This document shows positions 11,773 through 55,365 of a stretch of DNA of 64,000 nt, piece by piece (position 1 is the stretch's first letter; each line of letters starts with the position of its first letter). The DNA lies in the sequence record MT446396.1. One strand, 5' to 3'. The notes beneath the pieces are model-generated. The model did not search any database, was not told the origin of the DNA, and saw only the letters and a program-made list of their open reading frames with translations. Source of the stretch: Escherichia virus TH22. The position numbers and the translations under genes were made by a program.

Positions 11773-12521
11773 TTCTTCAAGTCCTTCTCAACTAACGATA
11801 AAGCAATACCTCGTTCGATAGGAATCATGTGCATGATGCTATCCAGTGTATATTGATTCTTTACCAGTAAGTGGTTAATTTGATAAAATACAAAGACTTC
11901 ATCCGGGTTAAGGATAAGCTTAAAGACATCAATCAAGTCTGTATATTCGGTTTTGTGTTTTTCGCAGCAACCATATGTAAATGGAATATAAACTGAATGC
12001 ATTTTCTTAAGGAGCTCTTCGAGACTCTCTATATCAATTGCATCAATAACCTGCATCTTCGTTTCTTCAGGAAGGTCTTCCCAATTGTATTTTTGTTCTG
12101 AGTCTTCGACAGTCTGGATGGTGTTTAGAACAAGCTCTGACTTATCTTTATATTCTACTTCAGGGAACTTAAATTGTATTTTTATCCCCGCGGTTTCCAT
12201 TGTTGGATTTGTCAATGGACCTTGGCTCATATTAAACAAAGTCTGCTTTGTCTTTTTACATTTTTGACATTCGAACGCTACCGGGACTTTTGTCTTACCG
12301 ATAGAGGAAGTGAATACCTTCAAGAATATGTATGGTCTCCATGCTTTCGGATACTCTCCAAAATAATCTTCCAACAGTTCGTCTAATAATTGTTTTTGTT
12401 CTTCGACGGGTTTGTTGTTCATGTCGTTTCGCACAAGCAGTAAATCACGGTAATCAGCGACTGTAAACGGTTTGAAACGATGAACTCCGTCTGGCATTTC
12501 ACATCTTACGATATTGGCCAT
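11769..12521 (-). CDS. 51: baseplate hub assembly catalyst
   Basis: 250 aa (T4 gp51 249 aa); synteny; ATGA overlap with gene 27. Confidence 0.8.
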
Positions 12522-13588: not shown

Positions 13589-13613
13589 TGCTTTAATTTT
13601 ATGGCTGTATAAT
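13587..13613 (+). promoter_or_regulatory. MotA-dependent middle promoter (MotA box aaTGCTTtA, 12 nt, TATAAT) for uvsY
   Basis: TGCTT at 13589-13593 and TATAAT at 13608-13613 with canonical spacing; followed by conserved GGTTCTAGACCC. Confidence 0.65.
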
Positions 13614-13641
13614 GGTTCTAGACCCTTACATTGGATACATT

Positions 13642-14076
13642 ATGAAAACAGAGATTGAATATAAGTTAGAAGTCTTTCAGGATGAGTTAGATGCGGATTT
13701 AAAAATTGATGGTACGCAACTTCAATATGAAACACAAAACAACGTTTTGTTGCATAGCAAATGGTTGAGATTGTATACCAACTGCAAGAAAGAAATAATG
13801 CGTCTTGAGATTCAGAAGAAAACTGCACTGAAAAAACGACTAGACCATTATACTGGAAGAGGTGACCCAGGGGAAGAGGTATGCATGGATGTATACGAGA
13901 AGTCGGAATTGAAAACAGTCATGGCAGCAGATTCAAACATACTGAAGATTGATACTTCAATTCAGTATTGGGCACTACTCCAGGACTTCTGTAGCGCTGC
14001 ATTAGATGGTGTTAAGTCGCGAAGTTTCGCACTTAAACATATGTTAGAAATAAGACAATTCGAGGCAGGCAAATAA
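13642..14076 (+). CDS. uvsY: recombination mediator UvsY
   Basis: 144 aa from internal ATG; LQYETQNNVLLHSKWL and C-terminal RSFALKHMLEIRQFEAGK match T4 UvsY as recalled. Confidence 0.85.
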   Translation: MKTEIEYKLEVFQDELDADLKIDGTQLQYETQNNVLLHSKWLRLYTNCKKEIMRLEIQKKTALKKRLDHYTGRGDPGEEVCMDVYEKSELKTVMAADSNILKIDTSIQYWALLQDFCSAALDGVKSRSFALKHMLEIRQFEAGK

Positions 14077-18903: not shown

Positions 18904-18932
18904 TTTTGCTTCAAATAAAAATGCGGTATAAT
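18904..18932 (+). promoter_or_regulatory. MotA-dependent middle promoter (tttTGCTTcA, 13 nt, TATAAT) upstream of rnlB
   Basis: TGCTT at 18907-18911 and TATAAT at 18927-18932; followed by conserved GGTTCTAGACCC. Confidence 0.6.
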
Positions 18933-19029
18933 GGTTCTAGACCCTTTGCAACTATTAATTCCTTTCAGAGAAAGAAAGTATAGTGGGTCTAATTTATAAT
19001 GATATTTATAACATCAAAAGTGAGAGATT

Positions 19030-23065: not shown

Positions 23066-24625
23066 TTAAATTCCTTTAACATATACGCGGCGGAAGTAAC
23101 CGTTCAAGCCGAGGCTGTTAACGATGTCTGGCATGCCGTTCTGAATGCGCTTGGTCGGAGCCTGAGCTACCGGGTCAGCGAACGGGTTAATACCGATACC
23201 GTAACGGGTTTTGAAGCCCATAACCGGCTGGAAGTTTTTCGGGTCAGAGCCACGCAGCGGGGTCAGTGCAACATATGGTGCGTAGTAGATACCAGCATCC
23301 ATTTCGTTAGCGCCTTTGTAACCGATGGTGAAATAGTCTGCACGAGCATACTGGTCGATGTATACACGGTATTTGCCACCCAGAACACCAGCGAACACAG
23401 CTTTAGTGGTGTCAACGTTGAAACCTTTACCCAGACCCTGAGCAGCATAAGATACGGAGGTATCAACTGCAGCCAGTACGTTAACTACGTTACGGGAAGC
23501 GATGATGAAGTTACCTGCACCACGGCCAGTCTGACGAGCGATTTCAGCGGCTTCTTTATCAATCTGGAACAGTAAAGCTTTGAAGCTTTCACCAGCCCAA
23601 CGAGCGCCACGGATATCAATCGGGTCCTGGAAGTCAAACACACCAGCTTTAGCGCCAACGGTGTTGGTCATACCAGATTTACCAACCTGTGCGGAGTAGT
23701 TAATCCAATCGATAACTTCGCGGTTGATTTCCAGCATAATTTCGGTAGCCAGAATACCACTCAATTCGGCATCAGCATCCATACCATGAACAGCGCGCAG
23801 GTCCTGTGCCAGTTCGATGGAGTAACTTGCTTTCAGCTGACGGGATTTAGCTTCGATAACTTGTTTATCGATACGGAAGCCCATTTCGTTCCACGGGTTA
23901 TCAGTAGAACCGTTGAAGCCTTCCTGCAATTCGGCGATAGAGGTAGCCATACCTTCAGCGATTTCGGCCAGCTTACCAGCTTCGAGCAGTTTGGTAACTT
24001 CGGCGTCAAGTTTAGCGGCATCAGTAGCAGCAGCATCAACGGTTACAGCTTCAACAGCCTGGAAGTGCGCGGCACCGGTTGCTTCGAAGAAGTGAGAATA
24101 AATTTTACCAACGGTAAGAACTTTGCTTGCAGCCAGAGCTTCGAAAGCCTCAGCAGCGCCCTGACCAGAGAACATAGCATTTGGAGCATACATCGGGTGG
24201 AAAGCTTCTTTAGCACCAGCAGCTACAGGGTCTTTACCGTAAACTGCACGCAGGGCAAATACCTGGCCAGTCGGGTTGTTCAGAGGCTGTACGCCACAAA
24301 TATCAAACGCAATCAGATGTGGGATAGCACGACGAACCATACCCATAACTGCCGGCCCAATCTGAGTTACTGCACCAGAGGTCTGGCCAGCAGCGATATT
24401 GGTAGCATCATAACCATGGTCACCACCGATTTCAGCTTCGGTCAGGAAAGAACCAAATGCTTCGGAGATTTTTTCGTCACGGTATTCAGGAGCGGTCAGA
24501 ATATCTTGTTCCTGGTTTTCAAAGATTTTAGCGATGATAGCTTGTTTAGAAGCACCAACGATTTCCGGAAGAGCTTCGTTTTCCAGCAGAGCGGACCATT
24601 TTTGAACTAATGCATTCTTTTTCAT
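23066..24625 (-). CDS. 23: major capsid protein
   Basis: 519 aa (T4 gp23 521 aa); paralogous to gp24; position between 22 and 24. Confidence 0.95.
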   Translation of the reverse strand: MKKNALVQKWSALLENEALPEIVGASKQAIIAKIFENQEQDILTAPEYRDEKISEAFGSFLTEAEIGGDHGYDATNIAAGQTSGAVTQIGPAVMGMVRRAIPHLIAFDICGVQPLNNPTGQVFALRAVYGKDPVAAGAKEAFHPMYAPNAMFSGQGAAEAFEALAASKVLTVGKIYSHFFEATGAAHFQAVEAVTVDAAATDAAKLDAEVTKLLEAGKLAEIAEGMATSIAELQEGFNGSTDNPWNEMGFRIDKQVIEAKSRQLKASYSIELAQDLRAVHGMDADAELSGILATEIMLEINREVIDWINYSAQVGKSGMTNTVGAKAGVFDFQDPIDIRGARWAGESFKALLFQIDKEAAEIARQTGRGAGNFIIASRNVVNVLAAVDTSVSYAAQGLGKGFNVDTTKAVFAGVLGGKYRVYIDQYARADYFTIGYKGANEMDAGIYYAPYVALTPLRGSDPKNFQPVMGFKTRYGIGINPFADPVAQAPTKRIQNGMPDIVNSLGLNGYFRRVYVKGI

Positions 24626-28941: not shown

Positions 28942-29072
28942 TAAGGAATCCTCTTTATAGACACAGGTCGCGCGAACGCGTCCCTGATGCATGTATTTAT
29001 ACTAGGTAATATGATTCATCATCTCAAGATAATGGCTTCCCAGAATCAACCACAGGAGCCCGTAGAACCGAT

Positions 29073-29110
29073 TATGCTTTTATTTATATCACTGTATAAT
29101 GGTTCTACGG
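29073..29110 (+). promoter_or_regulatory. orphan MotA-box middle-promoter-like element (TGCTT, 13 nt, TATAAT, GGTTCTACGG) pointing antisense into gene 18
   Basis: Same architecture as the uvsY and rnlB middle promoters; no plus-strand gene downstream. Confidence 0.4.
29081..29088 (-). promoter_or_regulatory. late promoter TATAAATA (minus strand) for gene 19
   Basis: Plus-strand TATTTATA in the 18-19 intergenic region. Confidence 0.55.
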
Positions 29111-29145
29111 TTTCTAACTGATTAATTCATTCTAAGCGATGATAA

Positions 29146-51995: not shown

Positions 51996-52035
51996 AAAGC
52001 CTCCATTTACAATATGGTTTAAGTATGATATACTC

Positions 52036-52047
52036 TATTTATAAATA
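52036..52047. promoter_or_regulatory. palindromic divergent late promoters TATTTATAAATA (gene 53 on -, HNH/gene 4 on +)
   Basis: Same 12-mer palindrome as at 12546. Confidence 0.6.
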
Positions 52048-52065
52048 CATATGAGGAAAATATAA

Positions 52066-52773
52066 ATGAACTATCTAAAACATTACAATAACTTAATCCA
52101 ACGAGCTAAAAATCGAGCACCCATTGATGGTTACAAAGAGAAACATCACATTATTCCAAGATGTATGGGCGGATTAGATACTGATGAAAATTTAGTCGAG
52201 CTTACCGCTCCTGAACATTTTGTCGCCCACCTGTTATTGGTTAAAATTTATCCAGATAATCACTCGTTAGCACATGCTGCGAAAATTCTAATGGGTTCCA
52301 ACAATTACAATAACAAACAATTTGAATGGGTGCGCATCCGCGCTGTTGAGACTTCCATTAAGTTTCACACTGGACGTAAACGTTCAAAACAAACATGTGA
52401 AAATATTTCAAAAGCTCTTAAAGGTAAGAAATATGGCCCGCGCTCTGAAGAGCATTGCAAAAAGTTGTCAGAAGCAGCAAAGGGTAAAAAGTTCTCTGAA
52501 GAACATTGTAAGAAATTATCAGAAAGAGTGTTTACAGATGATTGGCGAGCAAAAATATCCAAGGCAAATAAAGAAAGAGTTTTGGTAAATCATAGCGAGA
52601 AAATAAAGCAAGGTATTACTGATGATGTCAGAAAACGTTTATCAGAGCTTAATAAAAATGCTCCCCGTCACACCTGTGAACACTGTGGAAAAATAACAAA
52701 TCCAGGCAACTATAAACGTTGGCATGGTGAAAATTGTAAGGTACTTAAAAATGGCGTACTCCGGGAAGTTTAA
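52066..52773 (+). CDS. HNH homing endonuclease (Mob-like) inserted between genes 53 and 4
   Basis: 235 aa; HHIIPRCMGG...ENLVELTAPEH HNH core, C-terminal CEHCGK...NC zinc-binding motif; 3' end overlaps the gene 4 start by 23 nt. Confidence 0.8.
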   Translation: MNYLKHYNNLIQRAKNRAPIDGYKEKHHIIPRCMGGLDTDENLVELTAPEHFVAHLLLVKIYPDNHSLAHAAKILMGSNNYNNKQFEWVRIRAVETSIKFHTGRKRSKQTCENISKALKGKKYGPRSEEHCKKLSEAAKGKKFSEEHCKKLSERVFTDDWRAKISKANKERVLVNHSEKIKQGITDDVRKRLSELNKNAPRHTCEHCGKITNPGNYKRWHGENCKVLKNGVLREV

Positions 52774-53200
52774 ACCAACAAATCTAGAAAAATATAAAGG
52801 TGATTGGAAGAAAATACAGTACAGGTCGAGTTGGGAGGCATATATGTTCAAGTGGCTCGACACTCACCCCAATGTTGTTCAATGGGGTTCTGAGACTGTT
52901 GTTATTCCATATTTTAGCAATGCTGATGGCAAAAAGCGCCGTTACTATATGGATATATGGTGTAAATTTGATACCGGCCAGCAATTTTTTATTGAAATAA
53001 AACCATTCAAAGAAACACAGCCCCCAAAAATTCCTGTAAATAATACAGCAGCCAGTAAGAAACGTTATATAAACGAAATGTACACTTATTCTGTGAACAG
53101 GGATAAGTGGAAAGCTGCACAAGCTACCGCAGATAAAATGGGTATTACATTTCGCATTCTAACCGAAAACGGCCTGAAAAAATTAGGATGGAAAGGATGA
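52751..53200 (+). CDS. 4: head completion protein
   Basis: 149 aa from [18 protein letters not shown], matching T4 gp4 [18 protein letters not shown] as recalled. Confidence 0.85.
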
Positions 53201-54024
53201 GTATTTTTACATTTATCAATGAATCTGCAGATAAACCAGGTCCGAAACCCAGTAAATCAGAACAACAATGGGTTGAGATAGGGGTTGAATTTTATACAGC
53301 AAAAGAAAAAGGAATGACCTCGAAGAAGTTTGCTGAAGAGAAAGGAATCAACTATTCGACCTTTACCAAAAGCATGTCGAGGTATCATTCAAGAATTCAG
53401 ACTGCTTATAAAGTATCCAAGCTCAAAAAGAAACCTGCTGGTAAACTTACGAAGGCTGAACGCCAGCTGATAATGGTGAATAGCTTTAGGAAGAGCATAA
53501 GAGATAAGATTGCTAACGAAGGCGCTGCAAGCAACACCAAATCTGCCAGATGGTTCGCAGAGACAATTAAGAAATCAGTTCGCGGCCACGTAACGGCTAA
53601 ACCTCAACCAGGTAAACTTTATGCTTATATCTATGATGCAAAGCATAAGGATACTCTTCCATACTGGGACAAATATCCGTTAATCATTTATCTTGGTCTA
53701 GGTAAGCATAATTTGATGTACGGTTTGAACTTGCACTATATTCCACCGAAGGCACGTCAAGAGTTCCTTGAGGAACTTCTTAAGCAATATGCTAATACTC
53801 CTACGATTACAAACAAGACTCATCTGAAGATTGATTGGTCAAAGGTGAAGGGATTTAAAGGGGCTGACCAGATGATTAAAGCATATATACCCGGCAATAT
53901 AAAAGGTACTATCACTGAAATCAAGCCCAGCGACTGGGCAAATGTGGTATTACTCCCCCTTCAGCAGTTTTTTTCAAAAGGCAAAAGATATTCTTCCCAG
54001 AAAGTATGGAGAAATTCACTTTGA
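53197..54024 (+). CDS. 2: DNA end protector protein
   Basis: 275 aa from [16 protein letters not shown] (T4 gp2 about 274 aa); ATGA overlap with gene 4. Confidence 0.8.
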
Positions 54025-54680
54025 ATTATCAGTTTATATATTCATCGTTAATTGAAAGGGCCTGTAACAGGGTCCTGATTTCATATAAAGAATCTCATCA
54101 CATCATTCCGAAATGTATGGGTGGTTCAAATGACCCAGATAATCTGGTCGATTTGACTCCTGAGGAACATTATGTAGCCCATCAACTATTGGTTAAAATA
54201 TATCCTACAAATCCAGGTTTAAGTTTTGCTGCTACATCCATGTGCCAGTCAAGCAAGTATTTGAAACGCAATAATAAATTATTTGGTTGGTTAAGACGTA
54301 GACACGCTGACAATATTTCTAAAAGTCAAACCGGTAAAGTTTACTTTAATAATGGTGTCAAATCGATAAAACTATTTCCATGGGAAAATATTCCGGATGG
54401 GTTTGTCAAAGGAAGACATTACAGTCCAACCAAGGGTACAAAACATTCTCGCAATAATGGTCATTTTAAAAATAAAGAGATTCAGGATGAATTGAGAAAG
54501 CGCCGGTGGGAAAAAGATAGGCAAGAAATGTGTAAAAACTTCGGAGTTGATACCGTCGAGCAAGCTCGAGAGTTGGTCTTAGCATATAAAAAGGAATTGC
54601 ATCCTCGATACTGGGTAAAGCCAATGTTGGAACGTTATCCGTTTATGACTAAGCTAAGACTTAACACATTAATAAAATAA
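54006..54680 (+). CDS. HNH homing endonuclease (Mob-like), second copy, inserted between genes 2 and 3
   Basis: 224 aa; [10 protein letters not shown]...[11 protein letters not shown], paralogous to ORF 52066; 5' end overlaps the gene 2 stop by 19 nt. Confidence 0.8.
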
Positions 54681-54715
54681 TCTATTATCGGTCAGTGTTA
54701 TTGGTAAGGACAAAA

Positions 54716-54754
54716 GGTCTAGAACCATTATAACACTGATTGTTTTAAAGCAAA
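54716..54754 (-). promoter_or_regulatory. orphan MotA-box middle-promoter-like element on the minus strand (TGCTTTA, 13 nt, TATAAT, GGTTCTAGACC), pointing antisense into the HNH gene
   Basis: Reverse complement of 54716-54754 reads tttGCTTTAaaacaatcagtgtTATAATGGTTCTAGACC. Confidence 0.4.
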
Positions 54755-54765
54755 CAAGGTGCATT

Positions 54766-55365
54766 ATGTCAGGTTTATATAATCAAACTAACACGACTAA
54801 CTTTATATTAGAGGTAAGCGATTCAAACCTCACACAGACCTTTAAACTCAACGTTCAAGACGTTACCCTCCCAGGGGTTCACATCCCTGTGACAGATGTT
54901 CCTGGGGGAACACAAGGTATAAATCGCTCCAGTCTTCCTGGTAGTACAATAGAATTCGACCCACTGATTGTTAACTTTCTGTGTGACAAAGACCTAAGAG
55001 CATGGCTTGACATTTATAAATGGATGCTCTCGCTCAACAACTACATCACACACGAATCAAAAGCATGGCATCCGAAGGGTCGTCCCGAAGCGGTCACGCT
55101 TCATATCTTAGATAACAACAAGGACAAAATTGTCATGTCAATCCATTACTATGGAGCATGGCCGTCCGACCTGTCAGAGATTCAGTATTCATATAAAGAA
55201 GATTCTGACCCGGCTATCAATGCAACAGCAACTTTTAACTTTAAGTCTTTTGCTGTAGAAATTGATGGTATAATAATAGAAGGTAGACCACAGATTGATA
55301 GTAATGCAGCAATGCAACAGGAAATCAGGTCTAAGTCAATGCATCCATCTATGAGAAACGTATGA
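54766..55365 (+). CDS. 3: tail completion / sheath terminator protein
   Basis: 199 aa; position between genes 2 and 1 as in T4 (T4 gp3 about 176 aa). Confidence 0.7.
   Translation: MSGLYNQTNTTNFILEVSDSNLTQTFKLNVQDVTLPGVHIPVTDVPGGTQGINRSSLPGSTIEFDPLIVNFLCDKDLRAWLDIYKWMLSLNNYITHESKAWHPKGRPEAVTLHILDNNKDKIVMSIHYYGAWPSDLSEIQYSYKEDSDPAINATATFNFKSFAVEIDGIIIEGRPQIDSNAAMQQEIRSKSMHPSMRNV

Follow-up and report, generated by a model that had tools for sequence, protein, structure and literature searches.

The question raised by positions 54,716 to 54,754 of Escherichia virus TH22 (sequence record MT446396.1, of which a stretch of 64,000 nt, the window, was analysed as one strand, 5' to 3') is whether a promoter-like module directed against the genes around it is a real regulatory element and what such an element would be for. 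A preliminary description of this DNA had read the minus strand here as a middle promoter, composed of a MotA box, a 13-nt spacer, a -10 hexamer and a near-palindrome, that lies next to an HNH endonuclease gene and faces that gene and genes 2 and 4. The minus strand from 54754 to 54716 reads tttGCTTTAaaacaatcagtgtTATAATGGTTCTAGACC, with the four parts as described, and the layout of the open reading frames (ORFs) confirms that the element is antisense to the HNH gene and to genes 2 and 4. It sits in an 85-bp spacer between the HNH ORF (54006-54680, plus strand) and gene 3 (54766-55365, plus strand); gene 3 is a tail gene and gene 2 the DNA-end-protector gene. Escherichia phages UPEC07 and TH55 match the region at 99.9% identity (3.6 kb compared for UPEC07); they are classified in Straboviridae, Tevenvirinae, Gaprivervirus, and the plus strand of the window corresponds to the early direction of phage T4. 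From its anatomy and its conservation, the element appears to be a genuine, resident MotA/AsiA-dependent (sigma-appropriation) middle promoter, which is predicted to fire.

All the features of a T4-type middle promoter that can be tested on sequence are found at the site. The MotA box consensus, (a/t)(a/t)(a/t)TGCTTtA, is centred near -30 (PMC1524935; PMC2988021), and the distance of 13 nt from the box to the -10 hexamer is within the range of 11-13 nt of T4-type MotA/AsiA-dependent middle promoters. The predicted start is the A at 54720, the seventh nucleotide after the hexamer, because the start of T4 PuvsY was mapped at 115371, likewise the seventh nucleotide after TATAAT (PMC2988021). UPEC07 encodes both MotA (PF09114 at 3e-11, PF09158 at 7e-9) and AsiA (PF09010 at 8e-21), neither gene being inside the window, and sense copies of the module stand directly 5' of uvsY and of an rnlB-like gene, which are the positions of T4 PuvsY and PrnlB, two experimentally identified middle promoters (PMC2988021 Table 1). 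The module is therefore of the middle-promoter type and has usable machinery.

The motif is also more frequent than chance allows. The 17-mer TATAATGGTTCTAGACC has three exact matches in the window (13608 and 18927 on the plus strand, 54716 on the minus strand), compared to an expectation of 0.27 even with 3 mismatches allowed, and the composite GCTTYW-N11-13-TATAATGG has four matches compared to 0.00 in 100 shuffles. The four occurrences of an 18-nt motif that had been counted before are not obtained, the exact 17-mer being present three times only. The copy placed at 29073 keeps a MotA-like box (29076) and TATAATGGTTCTA, with its -10 at 29095, and then diverges to cgg; it is the fourth match of the composite, and the earlier count was therefore overstated. 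This partial copy between genes 19 and 18 is lineage-specific, the 18-19 spacer of T4 being without one. The complete UPEC07 genome has six occurrences of TATAATGGTTCT, each 12-13 nt after a GCTT[TC][AT] box: at uvsY, at rnlB, at a promoter that resembles T4 PnrdC.7 by sequence, and in antisense orientation at 19|18, 3|2 and srd|modA.

Seven copies align at the box and at -12 to +10 only, with unrelated spacers and flanks, so the copies are not block duplications, and a duplicated cassette of the promoter-early stem-loop (PeSL) kind was rejected on this ground. The PeSL cassettes of T4-type phages, which Arbiol, Comeau and Krisch reportedly described in 2010, are said to be repeated intergenic promoter modules with a stem-loop that carry early promoters, lie in hyperplastic regions and are repeated as blocks, whereas our element is of the middle class, is syntenic across genera and shares with its copies the box and -12 to +10 only. 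The block after the -10 is lineage-specific, GGTTCTAGACC here compared to G[AG][AG]TCTAAGTCC in T4, which could reflect short-patch conversion, a constraint set by RNA polymerase or a lineage-specific factor. The rnlB promoter (18908-18943) has the uvsY-type block, while T4 PrnlB (109763) reads TATTAT, with unrelated sequence after it; within a lineage, promoter cores appear to be homogenised.

The conservation of the element was then evaluated at the gene 3 locus. In a close set of 15 loci from IMG/VR encoding the gene 3 product (gp3), the antisense box/-10 module is present 5' of gene 3 in 15 of 15. A wider set of 47 loci was collected with a gp3 profile, of which 43 were tallied, with the weaker candidates L072 and L088 set aside; the module is present in 35 of these 43, down to a gp3 identity of about 47%, and several of the lineages that bear it have gp3 at 47-56% identity. 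They include Dhakavirus, T4 and relatives of Serratia and Klebsiella type. In an alignment of 12 sequences from six or more lineages, TATAATGG is invariant and the GCT of the box nearly so, while the mean column identity is 49%. The spacer between box and -10 is 12-13 nt long in all lineages, and the spacer sequences are unrelated. A set of 25 distinct orthologous sequences was chosen for having TATAAT, so that positions -6, -5 and -1 lie outside the selection; here G is found at -6 in 100%, G at -5 in 88% and T at -1 in 96%, and the GCT of the box is again nearly invariant. G at -6 and -5, T at -1 and A at +1 are the bases expected from selection by RNA polymerase, through contacts of sigma region 1.2 and the discriminator, which argues against a separate factor reading this block. 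Box, spacing and TATAATGG are kept while spacer and flanks diverge, which is the pattern expected of selection on a minus-strand promoter. At the level of these alignments, the comparison shows purifying selection on the element in its antisense orientation.

No gene accounts for this conservation. The preliminary description had stated that the module has no sense-strand target, and there is indeed no conserved ORF 3' of the predicted start in T4, SP18, JS98 and locus L024, where frame and length differ; a hidden small gene was ruled out, as none is kept across the four lineages. Rfam gave no match at E <= 1 over 54300-55000 on either strand, and no conserved terminator was found that would bound a short antisense RNA. 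A short RNA ending at the hairpin 53939-53925 (minus strand) was discarded, this hairpin lying inside the gene 2 coding sequence and being unconserved in JS98, L024 and T4. The late promoter TATAAATA is absent from the gene 2-gene 3 spacer, with the nearest one on the plus strand at 52040; the sense strand of the spacer is therefore read only within the late 4-2-3 unit.

The HNH gene next to the element, correctly noted for this genome, proved to have no link with it. HNH-free Shigella phage SP18 and Escherichia phage 212 carry the element with every base of the motif the same, endonuclease-plus genomes do not differ from endonuclease-minus ones over the motif, and the element is also found in many lineages that have no insert; HNH linkage was rejected by the alignment with SP18 and 212. 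The insert lies between the gene 2 stop and the sequence ATAATCTATTATC. At the same junction, VR7 and VR25 have an endonuclease gene, and Dhakavirus QL01 a non-homologous sequence, which its record calls an 'intron-like' endonuclease. HNH-free genomes carry the same spacer, thus the promoter is resident and the endonuclease genes are arrivals. For annotation, the HNH gene should be taken as a passenger inserted beside a resident regulatory element and not as its source. Inserts at this single junction differ by lineage (54024-54690 in the window; loci L018 and L023), those of the window, VR7 and VR25 being HNH/MobB-like; with a conserved promoter beside it, this junction 3' of the gene 2 stop has the appearance of a hot spot for insertions.

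The suggestion that the core is an endonuclease recognition sequence did not hold either. Genomes with and without the endonuclease have the same motif, which also makes up the uvsY and rnlB promoters, so it cannot be a self-avoiding cleavage target; moreover, free-standing T4 endonucleases are reported to cut hundreds to thousands of bp from their own gene (PMC2988022). The near-palindrome, proposed as a protein-binding site, is not conserved: it is replaced by a GGTCT-TA-GGTCT direct repeat in a 175-kb relative, by GGTCCTAGGTCT in Dhakavirus, by GGGTCTAAGTCC in T4 and by GGTTTTGAGTTC in another orthologue. As dyad symmetry is not kept across genera, a dimeric, palindromic operator was rejected.

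T4 itself has the element. On its late-direction strand, GCTT[TCA]A-N11-13-TATAAT has two sites only, 11885 and 75988, both conserved across genera. The second is the counterpart of our element in the 3|2 spacer, and the first is an orphan promoter between srd and modA, which points back into modA and whose -10 block TATAATGAATCTAAGTCC is identical to that of PuvsY over 18 nt. Both T4 sites have the block from -10 to +6 in common with PuvsY. The srd|modA orphan was found in 15 of 15 srd loci (L031-L045) of three or more genera, covering Gaprivervirus, T4-like phages, a lineage at 73% identity and Dhakavirus. In most of the mapped T4 middle promoters the -10 is followed by unrelated, AT-rich sequence; when 55 of them were scored for likeness to the orphan block, PnrdC.7 reached 8.3 and PuvsY 7.9 of 12 positions, compared to a median of 3.6, and P34i, the oriG promoter, ranked 8. 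The GenBank and RefSeq records of T4 hold no promoter features at the 3|2 or srd|modA sites, and searches of the literature for antisense T4 promoters, 'anti-late' RNA and the motif strings returned nothing specific. T4 does have antisense starts: a differential RNA sequencing (dRNA-seq) report gives 150 transcription starts, of which 22 are antisense (bioRxiv 10.1101/2024.04.04.588121). As far as the accessible literature shows, the promoter class and the antisense layout were already known, and the conserved 3|2 site and its srd|modA partner are outside the mapped T4 set.

Table 1 Features of the antisense module, its copies, its orthologues and its surroundings. Positions refer to the window unless another genome is named.
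Feature	Position	Strand	Remark
MotA box TTTGCTTTA	54746..54754	-	matches the MotA consensus
Spacer, 13 nt, box to -10	54733..54745	-	sequence varies freely between lineages
Sigma-70 -10 hexamer TATAAT	54727..54732	-	TGt directly before (extended -10); fits TAnnnT
Discriminator and initial transcribed block GGTTCTAGACC	54716..54726	-	
Inverted repeat, distal arm TCAGTGTTAT	54692..54701		perfect, 10 nt; pairs with 54730-54739
Inverted repeat, proximal arm ATAACACTGA	54730..54739		overlaps the -10 and the last spacer bases
Whole spacer, gene 2 (here HNH) to gene 3	54681..54765		resident, conserved; identical in HNH-free genomes
Gene 2	53188-54024	+	
Gene 4	ends 53200	+	
Second endonuclease-like ORF	52066-52773	+	NUMOD3 as sole match
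Genes 53 and 5	beyond the second endonuclease-like ORF	-	
uvsY middle promoter	13590..13624	+	box, 12-nt spacer, TATAATGGTTCTAGACC; orthologue of T4 PuvsY, the oriF promoter
Promoter 5' of rnlB-like RNA ligase gene	18908..18943	+	copy of the 17-mer
Partial copy	29076..29111	+	GCTTTT, 13-nt spacer, TATAATGGTTCTAcgg; between late genes 19 and 18, antisense to gene 18
srd|modA orphan promoter, T4	11860-11902 (11885)	+	
srd|modA orphan promoter, UPEC07 record	164113-164150 (164129)	-	
srd|modA orphan promoter, locus L008	~24113-24150	-	
Orthologue, T4	-10 at 75988	+	aaTGCTTTAtaactgttggtggTATAATGGGTCTAAGTCC (aaTGCTTTA-13-TATAATGGGTCTAAGTCC); antisense, gene 3-gene 2 spacer
Orthologue, Dhakavirus			GCTTAA-13-TATAATGGTCCTAGGTCT
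Orthologue, 175-kb relatives			TATAATGGTCTTAGGTCT
Orthologue, relatives of Serratia phage CHI14			TTTGCTAAA-12/13-TATAATGGTTTCAGGTCC

Among named systems, the nearest analogue of the element is P34i (oriG) in layout and PuvsY (oriF) in sequence. P34i of T4, the promoter of oriG/ori(34), is likewise a MotA box with TATAAT in a late-gene region, directed against a late gene and having no coding target, and it is conserved too: its orthologue in gene 34 of UPEC07 reads TTTGCTTCA-13-TATAATGGTCCCAGAGC and was observed at 23222 of the record (L006, plus strand), antisense within the gene 34 coding sequence. P34i differs from our element in lying inside that coding sequence, whereas the element is intergenic, and in being an origin by experiment, while the element is a predicted promoter; the P34i block after the -10, GGTCCCAGAG, is moderately similar. 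PuvsY of T4 (oriF/ori(uvsY)) has the extended block, and the 17-mer of the element is identical to the uvsY copy in this genome; in T4, TATAATGAATCTAAGTCC of PuvsY compares with TATAATGGGTCTAAGTCC of the 3|2 orphan. PuvsY differs as a sense promoter that also expresses uvsY, whereas the element has no gene downstream on its strand. The srd|modA orphan resembles the element in being antisense, intergenic, consensus and outside the mapped T4 table, but it would fire into the early genes modA and modB and not into late genes, and it is outside the window.

We consider that the element probably works as an antisense middle promoter with a regulatory or 'anti-late' role. During the middle period, host RNA polymerase carrying AsiA-remodelled sigma-70 would engage TATAAT at 54732-54727, with MotA on the box at 54754-54746, and transcription of the minus strand would begin near A54720. 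The non-coding transcript would run antisense through the 3' end of the HNH gene and then through genes 2 and 4; in HNH-free relatives it would run straight into gene 2. This 'anti-late' RNA, together with convergent transcription, would keep the late 4-2-3 unit, here with the HNH gene, silent or delayed until middle transcription fades, and the srd|modA orphan, by firing into modA, would likewise help to shut off modA and modB. The firing, the start position and the antisense or interference role assigned to the element are predictions.

Such a transcript would belong to a classical type. The 'anti-late RNA' of T4 consists of prereplicative transcripts that are complementary to late messages, and the antisense transcription of gene 32 is classical as well; this is the class of transcript that the predicted promoter would make. 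We know of no mapping of the promoters of T4 anti-late RNA. Both sigma appropriation and R-loop-primed replication have T4 as their reference system, and the mapping of T4 middle promoters has dealt almost exclusively with the early-direction strand. A conserved MotA-type promoter in the wrong orientation and without a gene, kept across genera in which gp3 is only about 50% identical, implies that a non-coding function has been selected. Should the promoter be active, it would offer a defined source of prereplicative antisense RNA that can be altered by mutation, and it would also be a candidate site of origin-like activity close to oriE.

Several observations weigh against this assignment. 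Neither T4 counterpart, 3|2 or srd|modA, is among the 58 middle promoters tabulated in 2010 (PMC2988021), which may mean that the sites are silent or that the late-direction strand was unprobed. Marfa-like Klebsiella phages (L082, L083, L085) encode MotA (L117-L119) without having the element, so it is dispensable in some lineages; in these phages, genes 2 and 3 abut (TAATG overlap), leaving no spacer and no orphan promoter. A correlation with MotA was uninformative, the Marfa-like phages being MotA-positive without the spacer and the Dhakavirus contigs missing from the MotA scan listing. HNH-free genomes show no early or middle sense promoter 5' of gene 4, therefore an antisense 'guard' would have only late or spurious transcripts to act on. 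The promoter core is also spanned by a 10-nt inverted repeat, whose purpose could be a different one. Finally, the antisense mechanism itself is one that we only infer.

A guard against early read-through was tried in this context and rejected. A sigma-70/early-like promoter, TTTACA-17-TGaTATACT (52006-52034), accompanies the endonuclease-like ORF at 52066-52773, the first along the plus strand. It is present 5' of gene 4 only with this first HNH cassette; SP18 and VR7, whose 53|4 spacer is HNH-free, lack it, and the wide conservation of the element must therefore have another cause. Late genes 4 and 2 could receive early sense transcription from it, in this genome only.

Among the other explanations, the one that survives best is that the element is the promoter of an R-loop replication origin of the oriF/oriG type, which we regard as possible but unlikely. 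Its non-coding, MotA-dependent transcript would stay hybridised to an easily unwound downstream region and, once processed, would serve as the primer for leading-strand synthesis on the minus strand, in the direction of the 4|53 divergence and gene 5. The two proven R-loop origins have PuvsY and P34i as their promoters (PMC2988021; PMC3016281), and P34i is likewise antisense, non-coding and inside a late gene (PMC2988021; PMC3016281; T4 rep_origin notes). The -12 to +6 block of the orphan is shared with the uvsY promoter in T4 and in this genome, and only PnrdC.7 and PuvsY resemble it among the 55 mapped T4 middle promoters; P34i, however, is a moderate match. The site is 1.3-2.7 kb from a transcriptional divergence, as noted for oriE, oriF and oriG (PMC3016281), and a middle-mode promoter within a minimal element of ~100 bp, as R-loop origins are defined (PMC3016281), is present by sequence only. 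Intervals of 50 nt at +1 and +25 fall at the 94th-98th percentile of easy melting here and at the 88th in T4. Nevertheless, nearest-neighbour duplex stability does not separate the known origin promoters from ordinary middle promoters, oriG being no better, and the purine content of the transcript, unremarkable here (rank 31-59 of 60), does not set the known origin promoters apart either, so these two measures say nothing either way.

The T4 site is 3.3 kb from oriE, but no origin is annotated at 76.0 kb or at 11.9 kb of T4, the annotated ones being oriA (16763), oriE (79355), oriF (115321) and oriG (152947). There is no middle-mode promoter near oriE (PMC3016281). The HNH insertion, furthermore, replaces everything beyond +40 with no apparent cost; the downstream unwinding elements of R-loop origins are exchangeable (PMC3016281). 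In a doubtful extension of the same idea, to which we give a slightly lower probability, the 3|2 and srd|modA sites would together be unrecognised R-loop initiation sites, either extra or partner origins directed clockwise towards oriE and oriA or clamp-loading points for late transcription, and the block shared with oriF would be the signature of transcripts that stay hybridised to their template.

It is improbable that the conserved feature is instead a sense-strand hairpin in the late 4-2-3 mRNA, acting as a stabiliser, a processing site or a partial terminator, with the promoter likeness on the opposite strand being secondary. The perfect 10-nt inverted repeat (Table 1) brackets the -10 and the start region, with fold z-scores against shuffles of -4.2 on the minus strand and about -3.5 to -4.1 on the plus strand. 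A stem of different sequence is kept at this position in Dhakavirus and in the 175-kb relative, with, as read by eye, an A-T to G-C double change. The antisense copy at 29095 has a similar perfect 10-nt inverted repeat, 29060-29069 with 29101-29110 (CCGTAGAACC and GGTTCTACGG), and no comparable repeat was found at the two sense copies, uvsY and rnlB. However, the invariant positions (TATAATGG and the GCT of the box) are in the loop or outside the stem and follow promoter logic, and T4, L027, L028 and L030 have hairpins elsewhere in the spacer (z-scores +0.6 to -2.9) while the promoter is kept. RNAalifold on nine sequences gave no consensus structure, the stems not being alignable column by column, and there is no Rfam match in the region. 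A hairpin also leaves unexplained the 17/17 identity to two sense promoters. In this genome both arms would be present in sense RNA or DNA only, the predicted antisense start falling between them. The inverted repeat is probably a second, local layer, a hairpin in late mRNA, and it does not explain the invariant promoter positions.

The least probable explanation, which we consider very unlikely, is that a sequence-specific factor recognises the GGTTCTAGACC block, be it a start-site regulator or the adjacent HNH endonuclease. In favour of this, the copies within the genome share only the box and the -12 to +10 block, so that the block itself is the part kept, and its lineage-specific form (TATAATG[AG][AG]TCTAAGTCC in T4 PuvsY and both orphans, TATAATGGTTCTAGACC here) could reflect co-evolution with a trans-acting factor. 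Against it, the palindromic symmetry of the block is not kept across genera, the block does not differ between HNH-plus and HNH-minus genomes, and free-standing T4 endonucleases make their cuts a long way from where they are inserted (PMC2988022); the block also belongs to the uvsY and rnlB promoters, which are essential, so that an endonuclease with this target would cleave its own genome.

Other features of the late region and of the copies were observed. At 52036-52047, TATAAATA is present on both strands within 12 bp, forming overlapping divergent late promoters that serve gene 53 one way and the HNH/gene 4 unit the other way. The loop of the 29060-29110 inverted repeat holds a minus-strand late promoter TATAAATA (29081-29088). 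At the uvsY copy, the UPEC07 annotation starts uvsY at 13612, inside the initial transcribed block of its promoter; the in-frame ATG at 13642 (MKTEIEYK...), 3' of the predicted transcription start at ~13620, is the likelier start.

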